Shown here piece after piece: positions 14,580 through 18,898 of a stretch of DNA of 64,000 nucleotides. Position numbers and translations under genes: made by a program. Source of the DNA: Escherichia coli (lineage in GTDB: Bacteria; Pseudomonadota; Gammaproteobacteria; Enterobacterales; Enterobacteriaceae); assembly GCF_044324785.1 (NCBI RefSeq), contig NZ_CP172127.1; one strand, written 5' to 3'. Under the pieces are notes generated by a model. The model did no database searches. It saw only the letters and a list, made by a program, of their open reading frames with translations, and was not told the DNA's origin. Every line of letters starts with the position of its first letter. Position 1 is the stretch's first letter.

Positions 14580-16229
14580 TTACTGATTTTCCTCAATCAA
14601 CAACGCTTCAAGCAAATCGAGATCGTGCAGTAATTTTTGCAGCGTTTCGTTGCTGATCTCCCGCGTGGCGCGCAGGTGGTACAGTTCAGCACGTTCAGAA
14701 CGCAATGCCGCCAGACGGAAGCGACGCTCAAGGTTCTCTTCCTGCACGGAACTTTCAACGTCGTTACGTCCATCGGCGCGACGACGCAGGTTACCAATGA
14801 CGCGAGAACTGACCTCCGTGAGCAGCTGGTTATCGATATTCTCTTCGGTATCCGCCGCCAGACGCTCCTCCATTTTCTGGATCGCCACAATCGCCACTTC
14901 TGCCGTTGCCGCTCGCGCAATACGTTCCTCTTTCAATTGTTGCGAATGGTCCGCGACTTCAATGTGTTGTAGCAGAATAGGCAACATCACCACGCCGACA
15001 AACAGCGAGAAGAGAATGACACCAGCCGCCAGGAATACCAGCTCATAGCGCGCCGGGAAGACGTTACCATCCGGCAAGAGCAGCGGGATAGAGAGCACAC
15101 CGGCCAGTGTGATCGCCCCACGCACCCCGGCGAAAGACGCGATCAGGATTTCTCGTGTGGTCCACGAACCAAACTCCATCGGCTTCTTCTTCAGGAAGCG
15201 GTTGCTGAACTTTTTCATCGTCCACAGCCAGCCGAAACGGACCAGCATCAGCGCCGCATAAATCAGAATGATATCGGTAAACAGCATCCAGATTTCGACG
15301 TTAGGGTCGATTTCTGCCGCCATCAGCGACGTCTCCAGAATACCCGGCAGCTGCAGACCTAACAGCAGGAATACCATGCCGTTAAAGACAAATTCCAGCA
15401 TCGCCCAGGTGCTGTTTGCGCGCAGGCGCATTGCCAGCGGCGCACGGCGCATCACACCGGAGCGGGTGATGGTCATCCCGGCGGCAACCGCAGCGAGGAT
15501 GCCGGAAACGCCAATATGTTCGGCAATCAGATAAGAAGCGAATGGCAGCAAGAACAGTAGAACAATCTGCGTCGCAGGTTCATCACCGCCCCAGCGGCTG
15601 AGGAATCGCAGCGAGCGACCATACAGCCAGCTCACTACAAAACCGGCGAGAATACCGCCAATGGCCACTTTCATAAATTCGACCGTCGCACCGCCGACGG
15701 TGAAGATCATCGTCCCCATCGCCACTGCTACGGCAAACTTCAACGACACCAGGCCGGAGGCGTCATTCATCAACGCTTCACCCTGCAAAATGCCCATGAT
15801 TTTTTTCGGGATGCGCCCTTCGCCAACAATCCCCGAGAGCGCCACAGCATCGGTCGGAGAAAGCACCGCAGCCAGCGCAAAGGCGGGGATCAGCGGAATG
15901 CCCGGCACCACCCAGTAAATAAGGAAGCCAATGCCGACCACGGTGACCACCACCAGCGCCAGCGCAAGGCCGAAAATCTCTCGACCATGTTCGAGAAATT
16001 CACGGGTCGGCGTTTTCCAGCCATCAGCGAACAGCAACGGCGGGATAAACAAGACTAAAAAGAGTTCAGGATCAAACTCCACATGCAAACCAAACGTCGG
16101 CCACGCCAGTAGCGCACCGATGGCGATTTGCATAAGCGGAAGCGGGATCTGAAAGGGCATGACACGAGTGACCACCCCGGACAGCGAGACCACGAGGGTC
16201 ATTATCAGTATGGTGAAGAAGATTTCCAT
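14580..16229 (-). CDS. yjcE: Na+/H+ exchanger (CPA1 family)
   Basis: 549-aa ORF, polytopic N-terminal transporter domain and charged coiled-coil C-terminal tail. Confidence 0.88.
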   Translation of the reverse strand: MEIFFTILIMTLVVSLSGVVTRVMPFQIPLPLMQIAIGALLAWPTFGLHVEFDPELFLVLFIPPLLFADGWKTPTREFLEHGREIFGLALALVVVTVVGIGFLIYWVVPGIPLIPAFALAAVLSPTDAVALSGIVGEGRIPKKIMGILQGEALMNDASGLVSLKFAVAVAMGTMIFTVGGATVEFMKVAIGGILAGFVVSWLYGRSLRFLSRWGGDEPATQIVLLFLLPFASYLIAEHIGVSGILAAVAAGMTITRSGVMRRAPLAMRLRANSTWAMLEFVFNGMVFLLLGLQLPGILETSLMAAEIDPNVEIWMLFTDIILIYAALMLVRFGWLWTMKKFSNRFLKKKPMEFGSWTTREILIASFAGVRGAITLAGVLSIPLLLPDGNVFPARYELVFLAAGVILFSLFVGVVMLPILLQHIEVADHSQQLKEERIARAATAEVAIVAIQKMEERLAADTEENIDNQLLTEVSSRVIGNLRRRADGRNDVESSVQEENLERRFRLAALRSERAELYHLRATREISNETLQKLLHDLDLLEALLIEENQ

Positions 16230-16379
16230 GCGTTCCCTGTTTGCGATGTTTTTTATGATCTGAGAAAGACGTTATGCCTGAATTCTCATTTTTTCAGAAT
16301 ATCGCAAAAGCTCACACAATGTGCGGAGAAAATAAAAACGGGCAGCCATTGCCACCCGTTTTCAGAATCATATGAAAGA

Positions 16380-17729
16380 TTAGATAGCCCAGCCACCCGC
16401 ATAGAAGGTCACCAGCGCCACAGCGATAACGACCGTACCGATGTTCAACTTGCGCCATTCGCCGGAAACCAGACGACCAATCACCAGAGTCGCGAAGCCG
16501 ATCATGATGCCTGTTACGATGTTACAGGTCAGCACGATGAATACCGCCGTAACCAGACCCGCCATCGCATCAACAAAATCAGCAAAGTCGATTTTCGCCA
16601 CGTTGCTCAGCATCAGCAGGCCAACGTACATCAGCGCCGGAGCCGTTGCATACCCCGGAACGAGGTAGGAGAGCGGAGAGAGGAACAGAATCAGCAGGAA
16701 CAGCACGCCAACGGTGATAGCCGTCAAACCGGTTTTACCGCCCGCCGCCGTACCTGCCGCAGACTCGATGTATACCGCTGCCGGAGCCGCACCCACCAGG
16801 CCAGAGAAAACGCTGCTCATGGAGTCAGTGGTCAGTGCCTTCCCGCCGTCGATAATTTGCCCATCTTTATCCAGCAGGTTCGCCTGGCCGGCGACGGCAC
16901 GGATAGTTCCGGTGGCATCAAATACTGCCGTCATCACCAGCGCCAGAACGCTTGGCAGGACTACAGGATTCAGCGCGCCCATAATATCCAGGCTGCCAAT
17001 CAGTGAATTGCCGTTTTCATCGCTCAATGAAGGCATGGCGAAAACACCGGAGAAATGGACGTTAGGATCGAAGATCAAACCGACAATTGAGATACCGATA
17101 ATGGTCAGCAGAATGCCACCAGGGACTTTCAGTTTTTCCAGGCCGATGATCGCCGCCAGACCTACCAGTGACATAATCACCGGGAAGGTCGCGAAATCAC
17201 CCAGCGCAACGGGCAGACCATCAAGCGGGTTTTTAATCACCAGACCGACACCATTCGCAGCAATCAGCAGCAGGAACAGACCGATACCGATCCCCGTGCC
17301 GTGCGCCACACCGTGCGGCAAGTTGCGCAAAATCCAGCTACGGATACCCGTGGCAGAAATGACCGTAAACAGCACACCCATCAGGAACACGGCACCCAGC
17401 GCGACAGGTACGCTAATATGTTGCCCCAGCACCAGACTGAATGCGGTAAACGCCGTCAGGGAGATGGCGCAACCAATCGCCAACGGCAGATTAGCCCACA
17501 GACCCATCACGATAGAACCGAGTCCGGCAACCAGACAGGTCGCAACGAAAACTGCCGCAGGCGGGAAGCCCGCTTTACCCAACATGCCTGGAACGACGAT
17601 AACCGAGTAGACCATCGCCAGAAACGTTGTTAACCCGGCAACCACTTCCTGACGGACAGTGCTTCCACGTTGTGAAATTTTAAACCAGGCGTCGAGTGAA
17701 CCGCCGGTACGCGCTGATGGCGTAGACAT
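16380..17729 (-). CDS. ghxP: Guanine/hypoxanthine permease (NCS2/AzgA-like)
   Basis: 449-aa polytopic membrane ORF; synonym yjcD. Confidence 0.88.
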
Positions 17730-17843
17730 AAGAAAACATCCCCTGAGAGTTTAATTTTCGTCAAGATGCGTGGCGGACAATCCCCTGCCAGCGAAACGTT
17801 ATCTTCCTGCTCCAGGTTTGCGGCAATTTGGTGCGTCGCAAAA

Positions 17844-18001
17844 AAGCAAACGTTTAGCTCCGCGCATACAAAACGGGTGGTAAAAAAAGCAAACGATTAT
17901 CCGGCGATCATAGCGGCTTTTTCAACCGAAGTTTGCTGCTTTTTTCTCTTTTATTGTCTTGACGATGAAAAACCAGGCAATTGATGCGCAAACGTTATCG
18001 T
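17844..18001. promoter_or_regulatory. Two PurR-box-like sequences upstream of ghxP
   Basis: aagcaaacgtttagct (17844-17859, 12/16 to ACGCAAACGTTTGCGT with perfect GCAAACGTTT core) and gcgcaaacgttatcgt (17986-18001, 13/16); a third partial gcaaacg at about 17889. Confidence 0.4.
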
Positions 18002-18250
18002 CGATGCGCAAGATTGCAGCGTTATCGAGCCGTATACCGTTCTGGATTGCGATAAAAAATCGTCTGAGATGACAAAAATATTGCGGCTAAAAAGTATACT
18101 TTTACACTGGCGAAGAAACGTCGGTGACATACAATTAAAGCATCAACACCAACCGGAACCTCCACCACGTGCTCGAATGAGGTGTGTTGACGTCGGGGGA
18201 AACCCTCCTGTGTACCAGCGGGATAGAGAGAAAGACAAAGACCGGAAAAC

Positions 18251-18284
18251 AAACTAAAGCGCCCTTGTGGCGCTTTAGTTTTGT
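18251..18284. terminator. Bidirectional rho-independent terminator (probable soxR 3'UTR terminator)
   Basis: Perfect 13-bp stem aaactaaagcgcc / ggcgctttagttt with loop cttgt, A-run upstream and T-rich run downstream. Confidence 0.6.
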
Positions 18285-18300
18285 GTTTGCGGATAATTCC

Positions 18301-18440
18301 AAAAGAGCTCGATCTGTCCCCTCGCCCCTTCGGGGAGAGGGTTAGGGTGAGGGGAACAGGCAGCACCAGTGCAAACATTTACCCTCACCCCGGCCCCATA
18401 GTTAACGATGAGTCAGCTTGTCCTTGTGGCGCTTTAGTTT
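18301..18440 (+). ncRNA. ryjA: Small RNA RyjA (placement from recollection of K-12 coordinates relative to soxR)
   Basis: Convergent with and overlapping the 3' end of soxR; region contains GC-rich hairpins (cccctcgcccc/ggggagaggg; gggtgaggg/ccctcaccc). Exact ends not verifiable from sequence alone. Confidence 0.45.
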
Positions 18441-18898
18441 TGTTCATCTTCCAGCAAGCGTGCGCCTGTGCCTTCTTCTCCTAAGCGGTCGCCCGGGTTA
18501 CGCAATGGGCAATCACTGCGCGAAAGGCAGCCACAACCAATACATCCGTCCAGTTCGTCACGCAGCGCCACTAAGGTATGAATGCGCCGATCCAACTCTT
18601 CTCGCCATTGGGACGAAAGCTGTTTCCACTCTTTCGCACTTAATGTATGCCCTTCGGGCAACACGCCAAACGCTTCACGAATGGTCGCCAGCGGAATGCC
18701 AATGCGCTGAGCAATTTTGATGATTGCGACATATCGCAACACATCACGTTTATATCGCCGCTGATTGCCACTATTACGGATACTGCTAATCAACCCTTTG
18801 CTTTCATAGAAATGCAGCGCCGATACCGCCACACCGCTGCGTTTCGCCACTTCGCCGGGGGTTAGCAGCGCTTTAATGCGGGGTAATTTCTTTTCCAT
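18434..18898 (-). CDS. soxR: Redox-sensing MerR-family regulator SoxR ([2Fe-2S])
   Basis: 154 aa; MerR HTH; C-terminal cysteine cluster [17 protein letters not shown]. Confidence 0.95.

Follow-up and report, generated by a model that had tools for sequence, protein, structure and literature searches.

Where soxR ends in the stretch of Escherichia coli DNA analysed here (64 kb of contig NZ_CP172127.1, hereafter the window), the same 22 nucleotides are found twice in the same orientation, with a GC-rich unit between the two copies. This arrangement raises three questions: what the GC-rich unit is, whether it was inserted or has always been part of the locus, and how a segment that belongs to the ends of two genes came to be doubled. 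We consider it very likely that the 22-mer is a target duplication, left by the insertion of a BoxC element into the terminator hairpin common to soxR and the small RNA gene sraL (also named ryjA).

The repeat copies and the shared terminator

The 22-mer, CCTTGTGGCGCTTTAGTTTTGT, has exactly two copies in the window, both on the plus strand and spaced by 159 bp (Table 1), as a preliminary description of this DNA had reported. A search allowing up to three mismatches gave no third site in the window, and 100 shuffles of the window yielded zero matches to the 22-mer; no such pair is expected by chance. Copy 1 forms the right arm of a perfect 13-bp-stem hairpin that a terminator scan calls on the plus strand, while the open reading frame list places the soxR stop codon (18434–18436) and the last two full codons within copy 2. 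In both respects, and in the two imperfect hairpins of the GC-rich unit, seen again by an inverted-repeat search and by DNA folding, our results agree with that description. On the minus strand, the stem of the terminator hairpin is identical and the tail, GTTTTCC (GUUUUCC in RNA), falls below the threshold of the terminator scan. RNA folding retained the hairpin on both strands, and transcription of soxR presumably terminates there as well.

Table 1. Features of the soxR–sraL junction, in window coordinates
Feature	Position	Strand	Description and basis
Possible sraL promoter −10 hexamer, TACAAT	18130..18135	+	Read from the sequence; 7 nt upstream of the Rfam start
sraL (ryjA), small RNA gene	18142..18282	+	Full length, ends in its own Rho-independent terminator; Rfam RF01408
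Perfect hairpin, 13-bp stem, 5-nt loop	18251..18281	both	100% complementary; terminates SraL and, on the other strand, presumably soxR
Direct repeat, copy 1	18263..18284	+	Last base of the 5′ arm, loop, 3′ arm and TGT of the terminator
Insertion	18285..18421	+	137 bp; composite BoxC with flanking extensions, internally shorter than the 154-bp form
BoxC/PIT/TMECO triplex motif, type A	18318..18354	+	CCCCTCGCCCC-TTC-GGGGAGAGGG-TTA-GGGTGAGGGG; fits the TMECO consensus and Table 1 of PMC4666352
Inverted partner motif, remnant	18382..18397	−	CCCTCACCCCGGCCCC; inverted-repeat search, fold, comparison with complete inverted pairs elsewhere
Direct repeat, copy 2	18422..18443	+	soxR stop and last codons (Q, N, part of E), soxR being on the minus strand
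soxR coding sequence	18434..18898	−	154 aa, ends ...LLEDEQN; open reading frame list and RefSeq annotation of homologous loci

The preliminary description had placed the small RNA RyjA in the GC-rich unit and had considered that a duplication might have created the sRNA locus. The Rfam model of sraL lies instead to the left of the repeats, where it scores 153.3 bits against a gathering score of 39 (E = 4.4e-36) over model positions 1–142 of 142; on the insert, the same model gives only a sub-threshold match of 26 bits, driven by the shared terminator. The sraL stretch of the window aligns with K-12 without a difference, and genomes with an empty site carry the gene intact, complete and identical. 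The Rfam match and the complete sraL of empty-site genomes thus rule out a RyjA encoded by the GC-rich unit, a reading that none of the analyses supports and to which we attach practically no credence. The 3′ UTR of soxR, which had been thought to run antisense through RyjA, runs through the BoxC element, and its overlap with SraL is confined to the shared terminator. In K-12, ryjA is annotated as overlapping the soxR stop by 7 nt, which fits a sraL gene that ends at the 13-bp hairpin.

Compared with SraL/RyjA as known (RF01408; PMC3753932), the copy in the window is a full-length match, convergent with soxR and ending in the same conserved terminator. SraL adjoins the insertion and served as its target, without being the repeated unit itself, and the overlap of its 3′ end with the soxR coding sequence is lost in this allele. 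SraL has been reported to be RpoS-dependent (PMC3753932). The TACAAT hexamer upstream of the gene is a possible −10 element, which the promoter scan left uncalled for want of a −35 match.

The empty site and the direction of change

Of 5,426 complete E. coli genomes, 5,421 gave a match to a 501-bp query spanning the region, and 157 (~3%) contain the query in full. Among the 5,421 genomes with the locus, 5,264 lack the insertion, K-12 included; in these, the query aligns in two pieces spanning 342 bp, i.e., 501 minus 159. Alignment with the K-12 derivative DOC14 gives the exact empty site, which reads ...GGCGCTTTAGTTTTGT up to the junction and TCATCTTCC from it (with longer flanks, ...AAACTAAAGCGCCCTTGTGGCGCTTTAGTTTTGT and TCATCTTCCAGC...) and has one 22-mer. 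The soxR stop of DOC14 (TTA on the plus strand) is located within the 3′ arm of the SraL terminator hairpin. The preliminary description had suspected a small structured element inserted with duplication of its flanks, and had proposed that the locus be aligned across genomes. Genomes without the GC-rich unit do carry a single 22-mer, at an exact empty site present in ~97% of E. coli and in the other Escherichia sampled; neither of the findings that it had named as counting against insertion, the lack of any empty-site allele and a GC-rich unit unique in the genome, was obtained.

The same arrangement was traced outside E. coli. A scan for the SraL pattern in one genome per species gave 108 loci; soxR lies on the opposite strand downstream of the pattern in 105, and the soxR search had no match in the other three. 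The representatives of E. albertii, E. whittamii, two further Escherichia, E. coli, and C. amalonaticus all have a SoxR that ends ...EDEQN and a soxR stop 1 nt after the GGCGC of the 3′ arm. In most other genera, a spacer of 7–25 nt separates the soxR stop from the SraL terminator, in some cases with REP-like inserts. Since the other Escherichia have the same empty arrangement, these comparisons indicate that the single-copy, overlapped state is ancestral for Escherichia and that the insertion in the window is derived.

The opposite order would have the filled state as ancestral and the single-copy allele produced by deletion between the 22–24-bp direct repeats, perhaps many times. Direct repeats of this length can support precise deletion, and the filled allele is spread over diverged backgrounds (the window, USMARC-49610 together with Z142-6, and an ST69-type lineage), so that some losses are likely. 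As the origin of the single-copy allele, however, deletion is very unlikely: the overlapped state with one copy is found in all other Escherichia representatives and in 97% of E. coli genomes, both copies of the repeat are identical, and a duplication of half the terminator would still be needed first.

Two variations in how soxR ends were recorded in the species survey. The extra C-terminal ...EQN of SoxR, with the stop inside the SraL terminator stem, is a feature of Escherichia and C. amalonaticus (L008, L029, L059, L066, L071, L103), and at two other loci (L027, L097), soxR also reads into the terminator stem and ends ...KN followed by the stop.

The insert as a composite BoxC element

The GC-rich unit had been said to differ from the REP/BIME consensus, and this is borne out: its motif is that of BoxC, and identity with REP/BIME or ERIC is ruled out. 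By its sequence, the unit is BoxC, later named PIT element and TMECO, a known multi-copy intergenic repeat of enterobacteria. Positions 18319–18353 match the pattern CCCTCNCCC-N3-6-GGGNGAGGG-N3-GGGNGAGGG, the TTA in the second loop marking type A, and the 37-mer 18318–18354 differs from entries 7, 11, and 15 of Table 1 in PMC4666352 only in the first loop, TTC for TTT. Intrastrand triplex formation in vitro has been reported for the consensus TMECO motif (PMC4666352). DNA folding of the GC-rich unit predicts Watson–Crick hairpins; the second of these, also recovered by the inverted-repeat search, pairs the remnant of the inverted partner with 18345–18354.

In MG1655, BoxC/TMECO has 23 copies, always intergenic and often arranged as inverted A+B pairs; its loci vary between strains, and no promoter, terminator, transposase, or other mobility function is known for it (PMC4666352). 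The soxR site is not among the 23 K-12 TMECOs listed there, and the supplement of that paper does not mention soxR. A search for relatives of the GC-rich unit, also proposed in the preliminary description, places it in a repeat family: an E. coli genome contains a median of 16 places that match part of the insert, and full-length matches occur at the soxR site only. All BoxC copies examined are intergenic (fepB-entC, adk-hemH, yijF-gldA, hrpB-mrcB, ygfF-gcvP, alx-sstT, lldD-trmL), copies also occur in Enterobacter, Lelliottia, and other genera, and the 64-kb window contains no further copy of the motif.

The likeness extends over almost the whole insert. Positions 17–150 of a 154-bp form of the insert (described below) are homologous to the yijF-gldA BoxC pair, and positions 11–106 to the fepB-entC pair. 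The extensions outside the triplex motifs align too, which leaves only ~6 nt at the left end of the insert unaccounted for. This near end-to-end homology with other composite BoxC elements points to an insert that is essentially one such element. Neither E. coli genomes, nor the 108 species loci, nor metagenomes gave a donor locus for the complete insert (137 or 154 bp), and no donor copy with the first 6 nt of the insert was found in E. coli genomes or metagenomes. A likeness of 18285–18300 to the sequence after the second repeat copy of an Enterobacter locus (L040, see below) is probably coincidental, as the GGATAA... stretch aligns with the left extension of other BoxC copies.

With BoxC/PIT/TMECO as described (Bachellier et al. 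1999; Hoyne et al. 2000; Holder et al. 2015, PMC4666352), the insert shares the 37-nt type-A motif with an inverted partner ~25 nt away, the intergenic position, many copies per genome, a strain-variable locus, and the 'palindrome effect', by which internal deletion reduces the element to a plain hairpin. The soxR site differs in being a clean insertion with an exact empty site and a 22–24-bp target duplication, a combination that is not described for BoxC in the literature searched. Like MITE-type repeats (ERIC/IRU, REP/BIME), the insert is short, non-coding, palindromic, multi-copy, and intergenic, polymorphic for presence or absence, and flanked by a direct repeat; unlike them, it has no sequence similarity to REP or ERIC, no known transposase, and a duplication that varies in length, from 22–24 bp at soxR to 3–4 bp at fepB-entC. 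The fixed-length target duplication of a MITE is not seen, with 22–24 bp at soxR, TAA/TTAA at fepB-entC, and none at other loci, and 22–24 bp is far longer than the duplications that transposases typically make. The element is internally palindromic through its inverted motif pair, and its outer ends lack a clear inverted repeat.

Outside E. coli, a locus of Enterobacter sp. kpr-6 (L073, positions 3470–3640 and 5420–5570) holds tandem arrays of BoxC-type motifs joined by a GACAGATCGAGCAC linker. The same linker flanks the E. coli element; family and linker are conserved across genera.

The filled allele exists in two forms. The 137-bp form is found in the window, USMARC-49610, and Z142-6. The commoner, 154-bp form is found in all other filled genomes among the matches listed, and has a complete right-hand hairpin and a direct repeat of 24 bp, GCCCTTGTGGCGCTTTAGTTTTGT; at least 60 genomes, including one labelled ST69, share it with 100% identity over 381 bp, and it was also seen in three metagenome contigs. 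The 137-bp form is best explained by an internal deletion in an element that was originally at least 154 bp long. Starting from a canonical A+B pair, slippage between CCCTC(N)CCC or GCCC repeats could account for both forms, each through a deletion of its own, and such deletions match the palindrome effect reported for BoxC pairs.

Positions 10000–18284 of the window are only 98.9% identical, over 8.3 kb, to the closest of the 5,426 complete E. coli genomes; the lineage of the window is thus unrepresented or poorly represented in that collection. Because the allele is shared in spite of this distance, it has either moved between backgrounds or is old and has been lost repeatedly. The window and the lineage with the 154-bp form encode one and the same SoxR protein, in which, compared with K-12 SoxR, residue 38 is S instead of T and residue 74 is R instead of G. 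One human gut metagenome contig (L122, ~1x coverage) matches the allele through the SraL terminator and the left portion of the insert, but within the BoxC motif it passes into unrelated sequence, probably because the repeat gave rise to a chimeric assembly.

Origin and consequences of the duplication

The event would have started from the arrangement usual in Escherichia, where sraL (plus strand) and soxR (minus strand) converge on one hairpin terminator that holds the soxR stop in its 3′ arm. In the lineage of the window, one non-coding composite BoxC element would have inserted into this hairpin and duplicated 22–24 bp of target, namely the end of the 5′ arm, the loop, the 3′ arm, and TGT. 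As the left copy would preserve the whole SraL terminator and the right copy the last soxR codons and stop, both genes would survive, no longer overlapped. The duplication itself may have come from a staggered break across the hairpin or, alternatively, from a replication template switch at the hairpin with re-entry 22–24 nt back. Either route was possibly aided by selection for events that spare both genes, since in E. coli only those duplicating the overlapped segment would do so. We infer this last part, the way in which the duplication arose, with low confidence.

The ends of both genes are preserved in the window: the SraL terminator is unchanged through UUUUGU, and soxR keeps its last codons and stop. 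RNA folding predicts that the soxR transcript gains a structured 3′ UTR, ~150 nt with two stable GC-rich hairpins before the old terminator. No promoter-like site was found in the insert by the promoter scan, and RefSeq annotation at the homologous loci places nothing within it. The locus illustrates how, where convergent genes overlap in a common terminator, duplication of the stretch they share can part them and leave both undamaged. It also offers natural near-isogenic variants, with the soxR stop either in the terminator stem or ~160 nt upstream of the terminator, a difference that may affect the termination of soxR and SraL, mRNA stability, antisense overlap and pairing, or expression.

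BoxC has been known for some thirty years, and to our knowledge no mode of spread has been established for it. Six other BoxC loci were checked for a general duplication rule. Only fepB-entC gave a clean filled/empty pair besides soxR (186 bp in K-12, absent in ATCC 25922), and its junctions share just TAA/TTAA, a 3–4-bp repeat. At adk-hemH, yijF-gldA, and hrpB-mrcB, the element is a cassette replaced by unrelated sequence; alx-sstT has an internal 76-bp deletion; and ygfF-gcvP has no simple empty allele among the matches listed. The six loci, with no consistent long duplication, contradict a general rule, and the short junction repeat of fepB-entC indicates that a 22–24-bp duplication is not a trait of the BoxC family.

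The behaviour of these loci, as replaceable intergenic cassettes rather than clean insertions and with no duplication length common to the family, lends some weight to a capture of the insert without transposition, either through illegitimate recombination of foreign or ectopic BoxC DNA at microhomologies, or through a 24-bp tandem duplication that came first and received the element later. So does an unrelated insert in Enterobacter sp. Cy-643 (described below), flanked by a duplication of the same half of the terminator. The soxR insert nevertheless ends within ~6 nt of the ends of the BoxC family alignment, its flanks are ordinary E. coli sequence with a sraL identical to K-12, and neither a donor locus nor a tandem-duplication intermediate was found; a metagenome scan for the terminator followed by G, where the tandem 24-bp intermediate was sought, gave only filled alleles. 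On this evidence, we regard capture without transposition as unlikely, and insertion with target duplication as the better account. The soxR locus adds a new site to a known family; the insertion is polymorphic among strains, its target duplication is unusually long, and it overturns nothing in current understanding. Clean filled/empty pairs with defined junctions are rare for BoxC, and the locus could be used for excision or insertion assays.

A parallel case is found at the SraL terminator of Enterobacter sp. Cy-643 (L040, NZ_VWWV01000003.1). A 23-bp direct repeat, CCCTTGTGGCGCTTTAGTTTTAT, occurs there at 1449–1471 and 1616–1638, 167 bp apart, and comprises 2 nt of the 5′ arm, the loop, the 3′ arm, and 3 nt beyond. 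It flanks a 144-bp insert that is unrelated to the BoxC insert and contains a long AT-rich hairpin. A related genome (L043) has the first ~85 nt of this spacer and lacks a ~102-bp segment that includes the second copy. A scan of 966 kb of retrieved enterobacterial sequence looked for exact direct repeats (16 bp or longer, spaced 40–450 bp) of which a single copy falls in a hairpin. Besides copies of the E. coli soxR allele and one 16-bp pair (L089) with a weak, 9-nt hairpin match, the Cy-643 locus was the only case.

Independent duplication of the same ~23-bp segment around unrelated inserts in E. coli and Enterobacter sp. Cy-643 points to the hairpin itself as what sets the limits of the duplication, with breaks in the loop and immediately beyond the stem, or template switching at a stalled fork, as possible routes; our confidence in this is low. 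A broader proposition, that perfect terminator hairpins such as that of SraL are preferred entry points for small intergenic elements, with duplication of loop, 3′ arm, and tail, strikes us as doubtful. If hairpin-directed entry were general, it would give a first mechanistic handle on the spread of BoxC and similar orphan repeats, and would help explain the instability of BoxC loci.

A further likeness of this kind was seen at yijF-gldA (L006, positions 565–600 and 745–790), where the variable cassette is a BoxC pair in some strains and REP in K-12. Its left bound, GAACAACGTGGGAGTTTCAGA, is similar to the part of the right-hand gldA terminator that comprises loop, 3′ arm, and tail, GGACAAGCCGGGAGTTTGGAG, and the two may be what is left of an old, decayed duplication of half a terminator.
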